A stretch of DNA of 64,000 nt from a virus. Every line of letters begins with the position of its first letter. Position 1 is the first letter of the stretch. Below, piece after piece: positions 2,279 through 52,779 of the stretch. The notes under the pieces were generated by a model, which was given only the letters and a program-made list of their open reading frames with translations, was not told the origin of the DNA and did no database searches. The translations under genes and the position numbers were made by a program. Where the stretch lies: the IMG/VR virus record IMGVR_UViG_3300044837_000085, positions 1 through 64,000 of that record, one strand, 5' to 3'.

Positions 2279-2447
2279 GGGAGTCCGCGCCATGAACCGC
2301 TATTCCGCAAGGCTTAGAGTCTCCCGCATTAGGACGTTGCGCGTTTTGCGACGAATGAACCGAGTCGCGTTTATGGAGTCGCTCCGATGAAACGCAAAAC
2401 CGCAACTATCAAAGACCGCAATGAGCTATTCCATGCCTATCCGGTTA

Positions 2448-3494
2448 TCACCCATGATCGCTAACCCTAGGGTGTTCCCATTCGCCGCTGTAAAGTTCGT
2501 CATAGGTCGGGCTCTCATTTCCCGCGCCGATTCCGAGCAGCGAACGGAACGCGTTGAACGGGTAGAACCGACGATTAAACCGGAAGGTAAATTCGTTGAG
2601 GTAGGCTTGCAGGTGTTGCGGGCTGATCGCGCCGTGATGGGTGCCCTGCAGCCAAGCTTTGAGGTTGCTGAAAACAAGGTGGACGATGGGCAGGTATTCT
2701 TCTGCGACTTCCGGGTCGCCAGCTTCGACCACGGGAAGGTGATCAAATCCCCGCTTGGCGAGTGTCGCGTAGCTCGGCGCGGCATCGGTCACCACCATCG
2801 CGCCGGGCGCAACGGCGGCTTCGACGAAACCGACCAAAGACTTAGCCGTCCGGTCCGGGATGACTTCCATCCGCAGCCGTCCTGCGTAGCGCCCGCCCCG
2901 CCGCGTTGGCTTGTCGCCTTTCTTTGGTGGATGGGTGCGAACTTCGACGGCGGCGATCACAATCGACTTATCCTCGGCATGGGTGCCGCGCCCTTCACCA
3001 CGGATCGAGCCGCCGATGTAGGTTTCGTCAACCTCGACGTGATCGCGAACGCCGATAGCGCCGCCGATACGGTCCCGGCCTTGGCGGACCATTCCGGCGC
3101 GCAGCTTGTGCAAAATCTGGAAGGCGGTCTCATATCGCGAGAGGCCAAGCTGCCTCTGGAATTGCATAGCCGAAAAGCCCGGCGTCATACTGGAAACGAG
3201 ATAAGCGCCCCAAAACCACGTCGTCAGGGGCGTTCGGGTGCGTTCCATCACAGTCCCGGCCGTCAGAGCCGTGTCCTGCCTGCATGCCCTACAACGCAGA
3301 ACGCCGGGGCGGGCGGCGAACCGATACGGCTCGCCTTTGGCGTCGCACGATGCGCAGACGAATCCTTTTTGCCACCGCACGCGCTCCAGGTAGGCGGCGC
3401 AAGCGGCGTCGTCCGGGAACAGCTTTTGGAAGCTGGGCAGGGATTTGGGGAACGGCAGATGTTCCCATTTGAGTACGTCGGCATAGGGAGGCAT
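2448..3494 (-). CDS. IS1595-family (ISXO2-like) DDE transposase
   Basis: N-terminal Zn ribbon (CASC..CRAC), VEVDETYIGG, VVTD, HLQAYLNEFTFRFNRR. Confidence 0.95.
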   Translation of the reverse strand: MPPYADVLKWEHLPFPKSLPSFQKLFPDDAACAAYLERVRWQKGFVCASCDAKGEPYRFAARPGVLRCRACRQDTALTAGTVMERTRTPLTTWFWGAYLVSSMTPGFSAMQFQRQLGLSRYETAFQILHKLRAGMVRQGRDRIGGAIGVRDHVEVDETYIGGSIRGEGRGTHAEDKSIVIAAVEVRTHPPKKGDKPTRRGGRYAGRLRMEVIPDRTAKSLVGFVEAAVAPGAMVVTDAAPSYATLAKRGFDHLPVVEAGDPEVAEEYLPIVHLVFSNLKAWLQGTHHGAISPQHLQAYLNEFTFRFNRRFYPFNAFRSLLGIGAGNESPTYDELYSGEWEHPRVSDHG

Positions 3495-3497
3495 GGC

Positions 3498-3731
3498 TCA
3501 GTTCATCCCGAGTTTACGGAGACACGTCGCGCACTTGGCCTCGATAAACAGGTCCAAGCCCCAGCCGTAAGCCGGGCGAAGCCCACAAGCCGCCGCCCGA
3601 GGTCCGATGCCCAAAAACGTATCATCATTGTCAGCGTTAACGGCGTGCAATCTCCAGCCGCGCTGGCCCGCGTCGAAGCCCGTCGCCGGGCTCCGGGGGT
3701 TGGGGGCTGTCGTGAGCCATTGGATTTTCAC
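3498..3731 (-). CDS. IS passenger hypothetical protein
   Basis: ORF in operon upstream of transposase. Confidence 0.6.
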   Translation of the reverse strand: MKIQWLTTAPNPRSPATGFDAGQRGWRLHAVNADNDDTFLGIGPRAAACGLRPAYGWGLDLFIEAKCATCLRKLGMN

Positions 3732-3734
3732 GGC

Positions 3735-3950
3735 TCAGCCCTCCCTTCCGTAAAGTTCGTCAACCAGTTCCGCGCCCTTCCAAATCTGGACCTTGACGAT
3801 CCGGCTGGAGGCTTCGTTCGCCACGCGCTCTTCTTCGCTCATCATGTACTTAGCCCGCTGCTTTGCTTCCTTGATCGTGTCCGCGCTGGACTCGGCGTCA
3901 TATCCGGTCTCGGCGTTGCGGTTTGTGTAGCCTTCGAGGCGGTAGGTCAT
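3735..3950 (-). CDS. IS passenger hypothetical protein
   Basis: ORF with ggag RBS, downstream of TTGACA-N17-CATATA promoter-like site near 3985-4013. Confidence 0.65.
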   Translation of the reverse strand: MTYRLEGYTNRNAETGYDAESSADTIKEAKQRAKYMMSEEERVANEASSRIVKVQIWKGAELVDELYGREG

Positions 3951-4274
3951 CTGTCGTCTCCGTGGTTGGCGTTTCGATGGACCTTATATGCCACGTCTAA
4001 CTGTGGGTGTCAACCGGATAGGATGCAGAAAGATGAAAATATATTTAGGGGGTGTAGGCGACAACCGGATAGGCATGAGCTATTCGACCGATTAAAGAAT
4101 TGCGGAACCCTGATTATGCATCAGGGTCACAAGCTGGAAACGGCCGCGCGTGAATTTGAAGCGGAAGGATTGGCGACGATAGCCGAGACTTCGCATTTTC
4201 AGCGTGACGCTTTGAGAATTGAACGGGCTTGGAAGTAACCCGCGCTATTGTGCGCAATGCAAAGGAATAGAGCT

Positions 4275-6577: not shown

Positions 6578-6798
6578 CCCCTCATGGGGCCAGAAGACCC
6601 CCTCTAGGGGCCAGATAATTCCAACCATAGGAGAATGAAAATGGAATTCATGGCAAATGTTGATAATCAAATTGCAATTCTCGAGCATAGCGACGACTTG
6701 CGGGACTATGCGGCGAAAGCAGTGTTACGCGAATTGGCTGATTCGTGGCGTGATGCGATGCGCGATGGAACGCCGCCTAGTGAATGCTTGATTGATTT

Positions 6799-7332
6799 TA
6801 TGCTTATCCGGTTAACGCACACAAACGTTGAGGCATACTAGATGTTGAGCAAATCGCAAATCAAACACATGGTGGATCGTTTTCTCGGCTGGAAATTGCC
6901 GGAGAACTTCGCCCCCGATGCAGGGATCAGCTTCAAGCCAGCCTTCAACGAACACACGGCTCACCCGTCCAAGCATGAGCCGTCCGGGACTAACCTGTTC
7001 GACGCCACACAGGCGGACGCGATGGTCCGTTATATGGTCGAGGAAATTCCCTCAAATCCTGATTTCCGATGGCTGATCGAAGCCCCCGGAACGCGCTATC
7101 TCGCGGTCCAGCGGCTTCATATGTCCGACAATTTTGAATGGACCACCGACCACGACAGGGCGCTAGCCTTCCGTTCTAAAGAGCAGGCCGATGCCCTCAT
7201 GATGGCAGTCCGCCAAATGGACCGCACATACGCAGCCGGAGCGCTGTTCGCCTTTGAAATCACACTTGGTAATGCAGCCGCCGTCGAACATGGCTGGATG
7301 TAGTGGCTGTGTGTGACAACCGGATAAGCATA
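6799..7332 (+). mobile_element. non-autonomous IS1595-derived gene cassette 1
   Basis: TIR tatgcttatccggtt / aaccggataagcata; 8-bp TSD attgattt (6791-6798, 7333-7340); no transposase. Confidence 0.9.
6842..7303 (+). CDS. cassette cargo, phage-type hypothetical protein
   Basis: 153-aa ORF filling the cassette; gagg RBS in the left end. Confidence 0.8.
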   Translation: MLSKSQIKHMVDRFLGWKLPENFAPDAGISFKPAFNEHTAHPSKHEPSGTNLFDATQADAMVRYMVEEIPSNPDFRWLIEAPGTRYLAVQRLHMSDNFEWTTDHDRALAFRSKEQADALMMAVRQMDRTYAAGALFAFEITLGNAAAVEHGWM

Positions 7333-7446
7333 ATTGATTTGGATATAGTCATAGCCGCGCTCGTTAATTGCAAGGCGGCTTTATCCTAGACCCTCTTACG
7401 GCTGATTTGTACCCGCGCAATGGTGCGCAACTGAAAGGAAACGAAG

Positions 7447-11296: not shown

Positions 11297-11404
11297 TCTC
11301 GCAAAATAGTGATGTAAAGGAATTAGGTCAAGGTCAACGATTTAAGTTGACGCCATTACTCTCAACGCTTATCAATGAGGTCAACGGAAAACGTTGGTCT
11401 CAGA

Positions 11405-12370
11405 ATGTCTCAGCACTTCCTCCTTTCGGCAAAGGCCCGTTCGCTAAGTTTAGCGAAGGTCGCCCGTTTGTCGGACGAGGAAGCCTATCAGACCTTCAAG
11501 CTGGTCCGTTGGGCCGCCACTGACGGCGCGCCATTCTGCCCTCGCTGCGGCTGTGTCGCGGTCTACACCTACGCGACCCGCAAGCTGTTCAAGTGCAAAG
11601 CCTGCAACCATCAATTCAGCGTCACGTCCGGGACGATCTTCGCCAGCCGCAAGCTTTCAATCCGCGATTACCTCTTGGCGATTGCGATCTTCGTGAACGG
11701 TGCGAAGGGTCACAGCGCCTTGCAATTGAGCCGTGACCTGGATTGCCAGTACAAGTCGGCGTTCGTCATGGCGCACAAAATCCGCGAAGCCCTCGCTTCG
11801 GAGTCGCGCGGCGCAACTGTCGCCGGTGAGGTCGAAATTGACGGTGCATATTTCGGTGGTCATGTGCGCCCGGCCAACAACAAGATCAATCGCCGCGACC
11901 GTCGCCTTGCTGAAAACCAAACCGGCAAACGCCGCGTGGTTGTCATCATGCGCGAGCGCGGCGGTCGCACGCTGCCTTTCGTGTTCAAGTCGGAAGATGC
12001 TTCCGTTGTGACGATTGCTCGCACCGTTGCTCCGGGCAGCATCGTTCATGCCGACGAAGCGACGCATTGGGACGCGCTACATGCGCGCTTCTTGACCAAG
12101 CGTATCAATCACTCTGAGGCGTACTCGACTGAGGAAGCCAACACCAATCAGGCGGAGTCGTTTTTCTCTCGCCTGCGCCGCGCTGAAATCGGCATCCACC
12201 ACCATATCGCCGGTCCGTATCTGTCGGCCTACGCGAGCGAAATGGCATGGCGGGAAAACAATCGCCGCGTCAGCAACGGCGAGCAATACCTAATGACGAC
12301 CAGCGCAGCGCTCACGCATCCGGTCTCACGGCAATGGAAGGGCTATTGGCAGCGATCATCCAATAGTTGA
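11405..12370 (+). CDS. IS1595-family transposase
   Basis: CPRCG..CKAC Zn ribbon, EVEIDGAYFGG, HADE, NQAESFFSRLRR. Confidence 0.95.
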   Translation: MSQHFLLSAKARSLSLAKVARLSDEEAYQTFKLVRWAATDGAPFCPRCGCVAVYTYATRKLFKCKACNHQFSVTSGTIFASRKLSIRDYLLAIAIFVNGAKGHSALQLSRDLDCQYKSAFVMAHKIREALASESRGATVAGEVEIDGAYFGGHVRPANNKINRRDRRLAENQTGKRRVVVIMRERGGRTLPFVFKSEDASVVTIARTVAPGSIVHADEATHWDALHARFLTKRINHSEAYSTEEANTNQAESFFSRLRRAEIGIHHHIAGPYLSAYASEMAWRENNRRVSNGEQYLMTTSAALTHPVSRQWKGYWQRSSNS

Positions 12371-19599: not shown

Positions 19600-20265
19600 C
19601 CGCCAACGTGGCGCTGCCAGTAGCCGGTGAAATCCACCGACTTGCCGCGCTTCATCGCCAGCGCCGCTACGCGGCTCACCTGATCGCCATTCGAGACGCG
19701 GCGGTTATCCTCCCGCCATGAACTTTCCTGCGCATAGCGGAGCAGATACGCGCCAGCGATATGGTGGTGGATGCCGATTTCGGCGCGGCGCAGGCGGCTA
19801 AAATATTCTTCAGCTTGGTTCGTGCAGGCACCGTCAAGGCTGTAAGCCTCTTGATGGTTGATGCGCTTCATTTCAAACCGTTCATGAAGGCCATCCCAAG
19901 ACGCGGCTTCGTCGGCATGAACCGTTGTGCCCCTCGCGATGCGGGCGCGAATGAAGGCGGAGGCTTGGCTTTCGGTATTGAACACGGCGGGCACTGAGTT
20001 GCCGCCGCGCTCGCGGACCACAACCACGACCTTGCGCTTGCCGTTCTGGTTACGCTGCAAGCGGCGATCGCGGCGATAGTCCTTTTGGTTGGCGGGCTTC
20101 ACATAGCCGCCGAAATAGCCGCCATCAACCTCAGCGGTTTTGCCTTCACCGCCGACAACGCGGCCACGCATTTCCTCAGCCATTGCTTCGCGCAGCTTGT
20201 GCAGCAGAACGAAAGCACACTTATAGGAAACGTTCAGATCGCGAGAGAGCGCCAGCGCGGACTTG
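19596..20265 (-). pseudogene. IS1595 transposase, N-terminus missing
   Basis: KSALALSRDL..EVDGGYFGG..HADE..GYWQR, highly similar to 11405-12370; no Zn ribbon. Confidence 0.9.
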
Positions 20266-49127: not shown

Positions 49128-50039
49128 TCAGCACCCCTCAATCGCCGTTCCGAAAATGTCATCGTTGAAGCGATTATTATACCTGAATTGGAACTCTGCA
49201 ACGTAAAGTGGCAAATACTTGGCGCTGACTTTGTGAAACGAACCAACGATACCGCGCTTGAAGATCGACCAGAAGCCCTCAATCGTTTGAGTATGCACCG
49301 CGCCGACAACGTACTGCCCCTTGGCATGATCGACGGTCGCGTGAGGAAATTTCACGCCAAGGTGCTTGTAGCCCGCCCAACTATCGGTGCAGAGCAAACT
49401 AACCTTATCCGAGACGGCTTCGTTCACGAACGCTTCCAACGTGGTGGCGCGGACGTTCTCGATCACGCGGGCGATGATGCTACCCTTGCGGCGCACTGCA
49501 CCAGCAACAATCTCTTTCCCAACACCTCCGGTCCCGAGACCCTTTCCGCGCTTGTCCTTGTGCTTGTTCTTGGCGAGACCGCCGATCAGGGTTTCGTCAA
49601 CTTCGACAATGCCGCCCAGCTTGGTTTCGGGTTCGATCAGAGCCGCGCGGATTTTGTGACACATGGAATGCGCGGTTTCGTAAGAGCCGAACCCCATGTG
49701 GCGTTGAACTTGGAGCGCGCTGATACCCTTTTTGCTGGTGAGCATGAGATGCACCACCTTGAACCACTGGCGAAGCGGCTTGTTGGTGTTCTCGAAAATG
49801 GTGCCCGCGATATGCGAGAAGCGATAACCGCCGCCCTTGACCGTCTCACACTCGTAGCACTGCCATTTAAGGCTCATCGTTTTGACGGGGAAAACGTTGA
49901 CGTTGCCGCAACGGGGGCAGTTAACCCCATCGGGCCAGCGGCGCTTAACCAGATACTCACCGCAAGCCTGTTCATCGGGGAACATGGCTTCAAACTGGCC
50001 TTCGGTAAGCTGGTGAACTGGCTTAGGTCTGCGGGCCAT
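49128..50039 (-). CDS. IS1595-family transposase
   Basis: CPRCG..CYEC, VEVDETLIGG, CTD, TQTIEGFWS, EFQFRYNNR. Confidence 0.95.
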   Translation of the reverse strand: MARRPKPVHQLTEGQFEAMFPDEQACGEYLVKRRWPDGVNCPRCGNVNVFPVKTMSLKWQCYECETVKGGGYRFSHIAGTIFENTNKPLRQWFKVVHLMLTSKKGISALQVQRHMGFGSYETAHSMCHKIRAALIEPETKLGGIVEVDETLIGGLAKNKHKDKRGKGLGTGGVGKEIVAGAVRRKGSIIARVIENVRATTLEAFVNEAVSDKVSLLCTDSWAGYKHLGVKFPHATVDHAKGQYVVGAVHTQTIEGFWSIFKRGIVGSFHKVSAKYLPLYVAEFQFRYNNRFNDDIFGTAIEGC

Positions 50040-51042
50040 TTGGCTCCCCCTGTCTATAGAGGCCAATATGGCATGTAATTCTAGACCAGTCAAGTCCCGG
50101 ATAATCGCCCACGTTAAAACCCTTCAAAGGCTTGTCACGGAATACAAAGCCCGTGCGATCGAAGTAGCGCGCGTGGGTGCCCAATCTGCACCAGAGCCCG
50201 GTGACTTGGCCACTCGCGGCGCAATCGCTCAGACATTCCTGGATGAGTGCTACGACGGTTGCGACAGCCACGACTTGGCCGACATCATGCTCAAGCACTG
50301 GGACGTGCGTTGGAAGGCATCCCAGATCTCATCGACTCTGCGCTCATCCCCCTCGGAGAAAGAATAATGCCGAATAGCAAGATCAGAGCGCAGCAACGCG
50401 TGAATTCGAGAAAGCTTGACGAGGAAGGAATGCTGTTAGTCCGGCAACGAAATTTTCCGAAGCCGACCAATTCGGTCAGCCTGCGCTATCGCAGCGAAAG
50501 AGAAATTGACCGGCGCAAACGCCAGATCGCGCGAGGGCAGCTTACGGAAAGCAACGGACTGGCGGTTTCCTCCACACCTCTTGGAGGCGGCAAGTGAGCT
50601 ACGTCACGGTCGGTCAAATCCTAGATGCTCACGCTCAGTTCGGCCAGCTTGATCTTGAAATGGTCAAAAGGGCGATGGGGCCAAATTTTCCCGAGAGCTG
50701 GAACATCATTCCGAATGGTCAGGGAATTTTCAAGGCCGCATCCCTACACACTCCGGCAGATCGCCAGAGTGAGGCGTCATGACCATATTTAAATCTGAGG
50801 GCTTGTCGTCGGCTGCGATCGAGATGATCGGCCAGCTCTACGTCAGCGGCCCCACATGGGACGGCAATGTCTGTTCAAAGCAGGGGCGTGGTGAGCTTTG
50901 CCGCGCCGGGCTGGCATGGCACGAACACGGCTATGCCTCGCTGACCCCGGAGGGCGTTCGGACAGCCGTTGAATGGCCTATTGCAGACCTCCGGCGCCGT
51001 CACGACGACCGCTGGCTCAAGAAGCGAAGGGAGTCCTGACCT

Positions 51043-51336: not shown

Positions 51337-51952
51337 GTATCGATGGCGAAGATAATGATTTCATTTTCAGGCAAGTTAGCCGCTCAGTCACGCTTGATCT
51401 TATTCAGCGGCTGGAGCGCGTTCGATTAGCTCTTCGTGAGGACAGATGGATGGCGGCGGCGGAAGTGATATCGGATGCAATTTCCGAAATTTCCGCGTTA
51501 AGAGCAGCAACATCTTCGCAGACGCGGGGAACCCCATGAGGCGCGCTCAATCATCACGCGATGTTGAGATTCCCGCGGAAATGATCGGGCTCGCCGAGCG
51601 ACGTACAGAATTTCTTTTCCGGCATATGCAATACGGCCCGAACCCGATGAAGATGATTCTTGCCAGCGCTTACATACAGGGCATGAACGATATGTTCGAC
51701 GCGCTAGAAAACGCCGGACTTATCGGTCCCACGGTCTCGCGCCCGCACGGAGGAACCCATGACTAAAGCGAAGAAGACGGAGCCAAATGCAGCGAAGCTT
51801 TCGGTCGGGCATCATTCCGGAGAACATATTTGGGGATACGAGGTTTTTGGCGATGGAAGGATTCAGTTATCGCCAGGATTTGCCGATCGATTTTGCAGGA
51901 TTGTGGATCGCGAAGGCGGCCTACAGGCCATGCAGGAAAACGTCAATCGTTT

Positions 51953-52344
51953 CATGCTTATCCGGTTAACGCACACAAACTCTGAGGCATACTAAATGTT
52001 GAGATGGTGTTGGCATCGATGGGAGAAACGACCGAGCGAGTTAGGTTGCTACGGTATGGGGCTTGAAACATTCGAGATGCAGCAGTGCGCAAAATGCCAT
52101 CATTGGCGAGATCGTTTGAAAGGCTTAAAGCCCGATGGCCGAAGCCGTTATTCATGGGAGTGGACAGATCGTCCAGCCGTCAATTGGCGAACTCTGCCCA
52201 AGTCTGAACTTGCCGAATTATCATGCATCATCGATTGCCGGGATGGCGCGGTCATGAGCGAACGAGACGAGGCGATTCAGAAAGCGCGGAAAGAGTGTCA
52301 TGACCACAACATCTAGGGCTGTGTGCCCAAACCGGATAAGCATG
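51953..52344 (+). mobile_element. non-autonomous IS1595-derived gene cassette 2
   Basis: TIR catgcttatccggtt / aaccggataagcatg; 8-bp TSD aatcgttt (51945-51952, 52345-52352). Confidence 0.9.
51996..52316 (+). CDS. cassette cargo, Cys/His-rich hypothetical protein
   Basis: 106-aa ORF filling the cassette. Confidence 0.75.
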   Translation: MLRWCWHRWEKRPSELGCYGMGLETFEMQQCAKCHHWRDRLKGLKPDGRSRYSWEWTDRPAVNWRTLPKSELAELSCIIDCRDGAVMSERDEAIQKARKECHDHNI

Positions 52345-52779
52345 AATCGTTTTGTTGCCGATGAATTGACGCGCACTCACAAAGAGCGCCGCGACTGGTG
52401 GAGCGAATTATCTAAGGATACTGGGATCGACCCAGCGAAAAACTATGTGTTCGACATAAGGACTAGATCAATAGTTGAGCAAAAAAAGCCCGATCCTCCG
52501 TCTCCACAGGAAGGCGGGGAAGCCCATGAGTGACATGCATTATGACGATCATCTTGACGGCGAATGCTGGCAGTGCGGCGGCGAAGGCCGCGTGGCCGGA
52601 ACCTGCATCGATGGCTGCTGTCTGGAACAGGATGATCCGGACTGCCCGTATTGCTCGCGTCGCTGTGACGTTTGCAATCCGCCAACGCCAGAACAGGTCA
52701 AGCGCGGCAATGAGCTGCGACAAATCCTAGCGGATGCGCTCAATGCTGTGTCCTCACCACTGAACCCGGAGAAATAAGG

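Follow-up and report, generated by a model that had tools for sequence, protein, structure and literature searches.

The stretch analysed here, which we call the window, comprises the first 64 kb (64,000 nucleotides) of one 104.6-kb viral record, IMG/VR entry IMGVR_UViG_3300044837_000085, with a G+C content of 55%. It contains two short elements, cassette 1 and cassette 2 (Table 1), that are very probably mobile insertion cassettes (MICs), that is, non-autonomous derivatives of a phage-resident clade of insertion sequences (ISs) belonging to the IS1595 family. According to the scheme that we favour, each cassette retains only the ends that a transposase needs – an inverted repeat of ~38 bp starting with CATGCTTATCCGGTT plus a few flanking bases – and, where the transposase gene would be, has small accessory genes, one to three in number. 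Movement would take place in trans, driven by a transposase that a complete IS of this clade encodes (in the window most likely the product of 2448-3494), and the cassettes would land in AT-rich 8-bp targets, which become duplicated. With no promoter or terminator of its own, a cassette would depend for transcription of its cargo on read-through out of the phage operon around it. Signals for translation are visible in the sequence of the ends: the left end shuts all three incoming frames and offers a Shine-Dalgarno (SD)-like GAGG together with an ATG, and the right end, a relic of the last transposase codons, shuts two frames with TGA and TAG and lets the third run from an ATG into the flank. 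By association, the role of the family would be to shuttle single accessory genes between phage genomes.

Two insertions with matching termini

Evidence that the two elements belong together, and with an IS, comes firstly from their termini. Inverted ends of the CATGCTTATCCGGTT type, accompanied by perfect 8-bp target duplications, bound both cassettes just as they bound the autonomous IS at 2432-4077, and CATGCYTATCCGGTT-type inverted termini are common to all three elements. The 14-base terminal motif ATGCYTATCCGGTT is present in six copies in the window, forming three inverted pairs, and is absent from the rest of the 104.6-kb genome; shuffled sequence contained a mean of 0.58 copies, and none of 100 shuffles contained six. 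In its full extent the inverted repeat reaches ~38 bp and takes in the pair CTAGATGTTG / CAACATCTAG. An initial annotation of this DNA had proposed two such elements, of the lengths given in Table 1 and each with a perfect 8-bp duplication, having near-identical left ends, similar right ends, a terminal core closely matching that of the IS and unrelated cargo open reading frames (ORFs). Inspection of the sequence and a script confirmed the elements and their duplications; 47 of the first 51 bases are identical in the two cassettes, the ends of the IS differ from theirs at a single one of the 15 terminal bases, and no similarity was detected between the two cargo ORFs. The right ends are indeed related, but they are less alike than had been claimed: cassette 1, whose left end is of the long class (L_long), has a right end that is shorter than the conserved right block by ~16 bp.

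This missing segment bears on the question of whether the cassettes are dead relics, fixed in the phage lineage, whose cargo has been kept as ordinary phage genes. Such a reading would accommodate the shortened right block of cassette 1, its outermost bases (T...A in place of the C...G found in cassette 2) and the fact that neither cassette has a second copy in the genome. Set against this, the duplications of both cassettes are perfect and their terminal repeats of 14-15 bp intact, other tip variants in the family have perfect duplications, and a transposase of the matching clade is encoded by an intact ORF in the same genome. We regard the relic explanation as improbable, and treat the two elements as mobile insertion cassettes in what follows.

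The sites of insertion provide a second line of evidence. Cassette 2 splits a conserved phage gene, the N-terminal half of which now finishes with a 14-codon tail derived from the left end of the cassette. Two frames of the cassette's right end are stopped by TGA and TAG, and the third, which is open, begins at an ATG and exits via the terminal ATG; translation of the C-terminal half may restart at these right-end ATG codons. Intact homologues of the split gene, 113-129 aa in length, are continuous across the break, and the residues N-R-F, which correspond to the target duplication, both close the N-fragment and open the C-fragment. Judged from these alignments, the intact homologues can be taken as a protein-level empty site for cassette 2. 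This answers in part the call of the initial annotation for empty sites, the part that went unanswered being an empty allele at the DNA level, for which the searches are given below. Cassette 1 has the same frame relation to its host ORF as cassette 2 does, and cut it so late that the frame, if restored, would continue for only 18 more codons past 7340; a homologue search with this ORF returned only itself, and hence no empty-site comparison could be made.

In both window copies the first duplicated base is codon position 1 of a co-oriented host ORF. An in-frame split with stop and restart was considered as a general design and rejected: among 42 oriented family members whose 8-bp duplications agree at every position or at 7 of the 8 there were 15 clear cases, of which only four had this arrangement, with 2.5 expected. 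Many insertions of the family lie at gene boundaries rather than within frames. Anchoring to promoters, with insertion 11 bp from a TTGACA box, was likewise discarded for this branch of the family, since TTGACA occurred once in 129 flanks and at no fixed offset.

Table 1. Positions of the cassettes, the IS and their parts in the window, and of two cargo genes in other cassettes.
Feature	Position	Strand	Description
Cassette 1	6799-7332	+	534 bp; transposase-less, very probably a mobile insertion cassette of IS1595 type; inverted ends and duplication
Left target duplication of cassette 1	6791-6798		8 bp, ATTGATTT
Conserved left end of cassette 1	6799-6841	+	putative transposase-binding inverted repeat
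Cargo 1 (P0001)	6842-7303	+	153 aa; large uncharacterised two-domain phage protein family
Right target duplication of cassette 1	7333-7340		8 bp, ATTGATTT
Host ORF cut by cassette 1 near its 3' end	6635-6841	+	now terminates at the TAG of the cassette
Cassette 2	51953-52344	+	392 bp; transposase-less, very probably a mobile insertion cassette of IS1595 type; long left and standard right ends (L_long, R_std)
Left target duplication of cassette 2	51945-51952		8 bp, AATCGTTT
Cargo 2 (P0002)	51996-52316	+	106 aa; small Cys/His-rich N-terminal domain, then two helices
Conserved right end of cassette 2	52300-52344	+	relic of transposase 3' end, and right inverted repeat
Right target duplication of cassette 2	52345-52352		8 bp, AATCGTTT
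N-terminal half of conserved phage gene split by cassette 2	51759-51995	+	intact homologues exist
C-terminal half of the split gene	52300-52533	+	in frame with outward ATG codons of the right end
Autonomous IS1595-family IS	2432-4077	-	1646 bp; flanked by duplication AGCTATTC
Passenger ORFs of the IS	3498-3731 and 3735-3950	-	two small ORFs upstream of the transposase gene
Acb3 CBASS inhibitor (cargo)	L094:955-1839		full-length match, 3.9e-71
NADAR (cargo)	L085:250-720		match, 1e-26

The cassette family, its ends and their cargo

The two window copies are members of a large family. Exact-pattern scans with the left end recovered 11 viral loci, 12 genome loci and at least 120 metagenome loci, and a scan with the right end recovered 38 viral loci; the figures given here for the family derive from the pairing of inverted termini in 171 loci, the metagenome part being drawn from among the matches listed. 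At least 105 distinct elements have the same inverted ends, with sizes spread continuously from 102 to 2124 bp and a transposase present in only the largest. Perfect 8-bp duplications flank 66 of the 105, and five more have duplications that agree at 7 of 8 positions. The duplicated targets are AT-rich (66% A+T versus 42% in the flanks) and show a weak palindromic pattern, R-W-W-Y-R-W-W-Y. Homologous cargo is found at different sites with different duplications – at least nine for the N6/N4 methyltransferase, four for the family of cargo 1 and three for ASCH – from which it follows that loaded cassettes move as units. The expectation of the initial annotation that there would be a family of cassettes with many different cargos is amply borne out, the 69 oriented cassettes having at least 51 distinct families of first ORF.

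No cassette end was present in 50,697 GenBank phage records or in 72,556 plasmids. Where ends matched metagenome-assembled genomes (MAGs), the hosts were mainly Hyphomicrobiales (Rhodoplanes, Pseudolabrys, Xanthobacteraceae, Hyphomicrobium). Gene-less versions of 102-213 bp with the same termini, true MITEs (miniature inverted-repeat transposable elements), were seen at loci L016, L017, L019 (a Hydrogenophilales MAG) and L044, and such versions occur in multiple copies in a bacterial MAG. The window cassettes are elements of another kind: MITEs are short, non-coding and of roughly uniform size, whereas these cassettes are almost wholly coding and the sizes within their family run without a gap from 102 to ~1200 bp, so that only the smallest members (102-213 bp; L044, L017, L016) are MITE-like. 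Solo left ends at L004, L013 and L019 were tried as borders of large elements and set aside, there being no right end within 4-6 kb; we read them as truncated or rearranged copies.

The ends of the family are uniform. End classes are few, and a long left end combined with a standard right end is found in 44 cassettes; conservation drops abruptly after CTAGATGTTGA on the left and begins abruptly at CATGACCACAACATCTAG on the right. All three inward frames are closed in 40 of 56 L_long left ends, in the case of cassette 1 by TAA, TGA and TAG, one per frame, and variants of the left end retain stops (TAA or TGA at GGTTRAC, TAG or TAA ahead of the ATG), an anecdotal regularity that hints at selection. 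In both window copies the SD-like GAGG lies 8 nt upstream of the ATG. In the right end stops lie 41 nt (TGA) and 28 nt (TAG) from the tip, each in a frame of its own; the open third frame begins with ATG and keeps phase with the ATG at the end of the repeat. The initial annotation held that the ends supply the start and stop of the cargo, and as a tendency of the family this proves correct: the frame is open from the conserved ATG in 45 of 69 oriented cassettes and in 31 of the 51 families of cargo (p = 7e-5, where 1/3 would be expected), and the standard right end supplies the cargo stop in 26 of 44. Cassette 2 is a case in point, for its ends encode the start codon, the last codons and the TAG stop of the cargo; translation must begin at the conserved left-end ATG or TTG, because invariant residues of the protein precede its only internal Met. 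Neither window cassette has promoter- or terminator-like sites.

A 10-base subterminal motif occurs in two reverse-complement forms, CTAGATGTAG and CTACATCTAG, at either end of the elements (at many loci, for example L014, L013, L126, L158 and L162). The two forms look like the outcome of loop inversion of a small quasi-palindrome.

That a single uniform pair carries dozens of unrelated cargos points to a single origin of the ends and later replacement of the cargo. Joints between ends and cargo appear to favour ORF boundaries: the cargo's own ATG directly follows ATGTTGA in 14 of 50 cases (p = 1.5e-6), and for 15 of 44 cargos the stop codon is a TGA that forms part of an ATGA overlap. The initial annotation went further, describing cargo ORFs that run exactly from end to end and envisaging cargo that is swapped precisely. 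The window does show an exact fit; in cassette 1, however, it is the product of small deletions, as indicated by a series of related cassettes in which trimming is stepwise. The relative of cargo 1 at L003 has its own SD, its own ATG at 19 nt from the inner border of the left end, and a TGA of its own ahead of the right block; at L128 the arrangement is the same with the ATG 9 nt inside the left end; and in the window the cargo's own start and stop have both been trimmed off, along with 16 bp of the right block, such that ATG and TAG come from the cassette. Precise swapping is not borne out, the fit of cassette 1 being due to trimming at both junctions.

It could still be argued that a dedicated mechanism of precise cargo exchange, integron-like, makes use of the subterminal motifs CTAGATGTTG / CAACATCTAG or of microhomology at gene boundaries. 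The 44 cassettes that combine unrelated cargo with one uniform, sharp-bordered and extended end pair would be explained in this way, as would the abutting ATGs and the ATGA-overlap stops. Yet no recombinase gene is associated with the cassettes, the joints are variable (the cargo start can fall 0-40 nt inside the left end, the stop codon 14-228 nt short of the tip), the cargo-1 series lacks any fixed joint, and selection for compactness and expression could give the same sharp boundaries. We consider it unlikely that such a mechanism exists.

The insertion sequence clade

The transposase of the window IS (2448-3494, minus strand, 348 aa) matches the Pfam families DDE_Tnp_IS1595 (PF12762, 1.1e-35) and Zn_ribbon_IS1595 (PF12760, 3.7e-11). 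The element at 2432-4077 combines what characterises the IS1595 family: a DDE transposase with an ISXO2-like catalytic domain and an N-terminal zinc ribbon, inverted repeats and an 8-bp duplication. The ends, CATGCYTATCC, fit nnnGcnTATC, the ISfinder end consensus of the ISSod11 group, and the element may belong to that group.

Transposases of the same clade were found on 74 IMG/VR loci, at 50-90% identity save for one distant match at 28%, and in 63 of the 74 both termini could be identified, mostly with perfect 8-bp duplications, giving elements of 1150-2636 bp. Among the distinct ISs of the clade 57 of 59 exceed the minimal size of 1150 bp, as does the window IS, and so have space for passenger DNA; the passengers include homologues of cassette cargo, namely C5 and N6/N4 methyltransferases, a PAPS-reductase-like gene and phrog_12600. 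In the minimal ISs L237-L239 the TAG of the transposase falls inside the very motif that forms the right end of cassettes, and in other ISs of the clade (e.g. L198) the transposase ends a few codons earlier, in a homologous stretch. The right end of a cassette is thus made up of the right repeat and, before it, the final few codons of the transposase gene, which marks the cassettes as derivatives that arose by transposase deletion.

A full IS and a cassette are found together on at least four viral contigs (L012/L192, L158/L194, L164/L202 and L153) in addition to the window genome, and in the IS of L158 24 of the first 26 bases are as in cassette ends. Mobilisation of the cassettes in trans by a transposase of this clade is plausible and well supported by such association, and the IS at 2432-4077 is the likely source of the transposase for the cassettes of the window. 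A further observation comes from L164:8412-10676, on the contig of L202, where an IS of the clade holds a truncated cassette left end and the start of a methyltransferase-like ORF. The nested end is sited between the left end of the IS and its transposase gene, which suggests that cassettes and passenger-carrying (transporter) ISs nest and recombine.

The window IS has several features of its own. A second, inner copy of the left terminus (3995-4030) lies ~52 bp inside the outer one and is cassette-like, with GACACCCACAG following the core. The IS interrupts a host ORF that starts at 2387, cutting it 15 codons in (2387-2431 / 4086 onward), and an antisense open frame of 605 codons (2421-4238, plus strand) crosses the whole IS and leaves it in the frame of the interrupted gene; this long frame is probably a composition artefact of G+C-rich DNA. 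The product of the passenger ORF at 3498-3731 (77 aa) and cargo 2 have in common the motif Y-G-x-G-L-[DE]-x-F ... C-x-x-C. The match between them is weak (18 columns, hhalign probability 36%), and may reflect distant homology or chance.

Further IS1595-type transposase genes are located at 11375-12370 (plus strand), 19707-20135 (minus) and 49128-50093 (minus), with matches to PF12762 of 1.5e-37 to 3e-47. No CATGCYTATCCGG-type ends or clear inverted repeats were seen around these three genes, and the transposases encoded at 2448-3494, 11375-12370 and 49128-50093, the three that were compared, share only 25-33% identity with one another. Four IS1595-type transposase genes in one phage is unusual.

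Cargo, known systems and significance

A family match in Pfam or PHROG was obtained for ~20 of 79 cargo ORFs. Most of the annotated cargo consists of DNA methyltransferases: nine N6/N4 methylases (N6_N4_Mtase), three C5 methylases and one Dam. Mom (a Mom-family match at 2.5e-12), Acb3 (an inhibitor of CBASS, the cyclic-oligonucleotide-based anti-phage signalling system), NADAR, DUF1643, ASCH and a helix-turn-helix (HTH) protein are represented by one cargo ORF each, and three further cargo ORFs match the PAPS-reductase-like phrog_424. Orphan methyltransferases and Mom shield the DNA of phages against restriction, the annotation of Acb3 is that of an inhibitor of CBASS, and NADAR enzymes undo ADP-ribosylation of DNA; known or likely counter-defence genes (Acb3, NADAR, Mom) are thus carried, alongside the methyltransferases, on the same ends. 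All cargo whose annotation is clear falls under DNA-modification enzymes or under known or likely counter-defence proteins. A bias of the cargo towards DNA modification and counter-defence is suggested by this spectrum.

The cargo of the window falls outside the annotated set, neither cargo 1 nor cargo 2 matching a Pfam or PHROG family. Cargo 1 belongs to a family with 1126 homologues in a large protein collection, in full-length two-domain and N-domain-only forms. Over the N-terminal 66 residues it shares 76% identity with a Rhizobium phage RHph_I1_23 protein, and over 75 residues 57% with a protein of Caulobacter phage CcrColossus; no inverted repeat of the cassette type was seen beside the homologous gene of RHph_I1_23, the one of the two phages covered by this check. 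An AlphaFold model of cargo 1 (predicted local distance difference test score, pLDDT, 72.6) gave no PDB match at E <= 0.001. For cargo 2 there are 12 representative homologues, and common to them is a domain of ~45 residues in which C5, H7, W9, C31 and C34 are invariant; its model has a pLDDT of 72.2. We consider both proteins to be candidate counter-defence or host-takeover proteins. The idea that the cargo ORFs are decayed transposases, or spurious ORFs in ordinary MITEs, has nothing in its favour except their small size and the missing Pfam and PHROG families, and merits practically no credence: both have homologues outside cassettes (those of cargo 1 including proteins of cultured Rhizobium and Caulobacter phages, those of cargo 2 forming a conserved Cys/His domain family), neither resembles the three full-length transposases of the genome, and other cassettes carry clear enzymes.

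Several points weigh against our interpretation of the elements as cassettes that are mobilised in trans and expressed from their ends. The ends of the window IS match those of the cassettes at 14 of the first 15 bp and then at roughly 21 of 27 positions, and for this reason another member of the clade may be the real partner. Searches for empty alleles at the DNA level were negative: the flanks of the three window elements had no close relatives among the fetched loci, scans of IMG/VR with neighbouring genes gave one 62-aa domain match or nothing, tblastn with the halves of the gene split by cassette 2 found no match in GenBank phages, and a profile scan of viral contigs found none either; across these flank, neighbour-gene, tblastn and profile searches no close relative of the window phage came to light. 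The frame-closing and restart features follow from one ancestral end pair and are not independent evidence of selection. Cargo would be transcribed by read-through from the phage operon and translated from the adaptor signals of the ends; in favour of this, cargo and neighbouring genes point the same way in 50 of the 69 flanks that could be called (p = 2e-4), but strand was assigned by a crude longest-ORF rule. Finally, the counter-defence bias is suggestive, resting as it does on the roughly 20 annotated ORFs among 79 and lacking a control set.

Among known systems, comparison with the ultra-small mobile elements of mycobacteriophages is instructive. These elements are sub-kilobase, transposase-less, bounded by short inverted repeats and scattered in phage genomes, and each has one small ORF. 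To our knowledge they are of fixed size, have a single conserved ORF and have no known parent IS. The cassettes resemble them in being small, transposase-less, single-ORF elements bounded by inverted repeats and resident in phages, and differ from them in having highly variable cargo and an identified clade of parent ISs. The mycobacteriophage elements are described as MPME1 and MPME2 (PMC3029335, PMC4351075).

The closest parallel is with MICs, exemplified by IS231-MIC231 of Bacillus cereus (De Palmenaer et al. 2004, cited in PMC3129680 and PMC3281130). The window elements have the features of MICs that can be tested here: IS-family ends, no transposase inside, unrelated passenger genes and 8-bp duplications. 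As MICs are portrayed in the citing papers, the similarity extends to IS-type ends that enclose passenger genes without a transposase, a duplication of the length made by the parent and a presumption of mobilisation in trans. Unlike MIC231, so portrayed, the window cassettes have an IS1595 rather than an IS4/IS231 parent, reside in a phage and carry very small, single-gene loads. Two further traits set the phage cassettes apart from MICs as the same accounts describe them: the ends double as translation adaptors, providing stops, an SD-like site, an ATG and a relic transposase stop, and dozens of cargo families share one uniform end pair. The IS1595 family is also the source of the 'transporter IS', which bears passenger genes (Siguier, Gagnevin and Chandler 2009, cited in PMC2853133 and PMC3129680). 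To go by these citations, transporter ISs and cassettes have in common the transposase family, the 8-bp duplication and the kind of passenger gene, and are distinguished by the transposase itself, of which cassettes keep only the last few codons.

Restriction-modification (RM) units flanked by inverted repeats and target duplications have been proposed as possibly non-autonomous transposons (Furuta, Abe and Kobayashi 2010, PMC2853133). Like these, the cassettes have genes for DNA modification enclosed by inverted repeats, and the target duplications are short; unlike these units, which are bacterial and chromosomal, of various types and without a defined IS parent, they carry orphan methyltransferases or other single genes, have IS1595 ends and are found in phages. 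Gene cassettes of integrons, which have an attC recombination site and are inserted by an integrase with no duplication of the target, are a different entity, for the cassettes described here have terminal inverted repeats and 8-bp duplications instead, and no integrase was seen next to them. Our literature search for IS1595 cassettes in phages found only general papers on MICs, transporter ISs, MPMEs and RM units, and the family is apparently undescribed, probably because it is invisible in cultured collections, GenBank phages and plasmids being devoid of its ends.

The prevailing view is that the genomes of lytic phages seldom contain transposable elements and are harmed by them. The IS1595 clade and its transposase-less derivatives appear to be phage-resident, and to ferry single accessory genes. 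If the bias towards counter-defence is real, the cassettes would explain the horizontal spread of such genes between unrelated phages, and their conserved ends would be a cheap sequence tag with which to harvest anti-defence candidates from metagenomes. It is conceivable, though on balance we doubt it, that all of this is of a piece: that cassettes and their transporter-IS parents constitute a dedicated, plug-and-play counter-defence shuttle of environmental phages of Alphaproteobacteria, in which any single ORF could, by virtue of the ends, join a polycistronic operon of a phage and immediately be expressed, the cargo would be replaced at ORF boundaries via the start-stop overlaps (TGATG and ATGA) that phage operons typically have, and the P0001 two-domain and P0002 Cys/His mini-domain families would be new anti-defence proteins. 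Should this prove true, the roughly 60 unannotated cargo ORFs would amount to a catalogue of candidate anti-defence genes.

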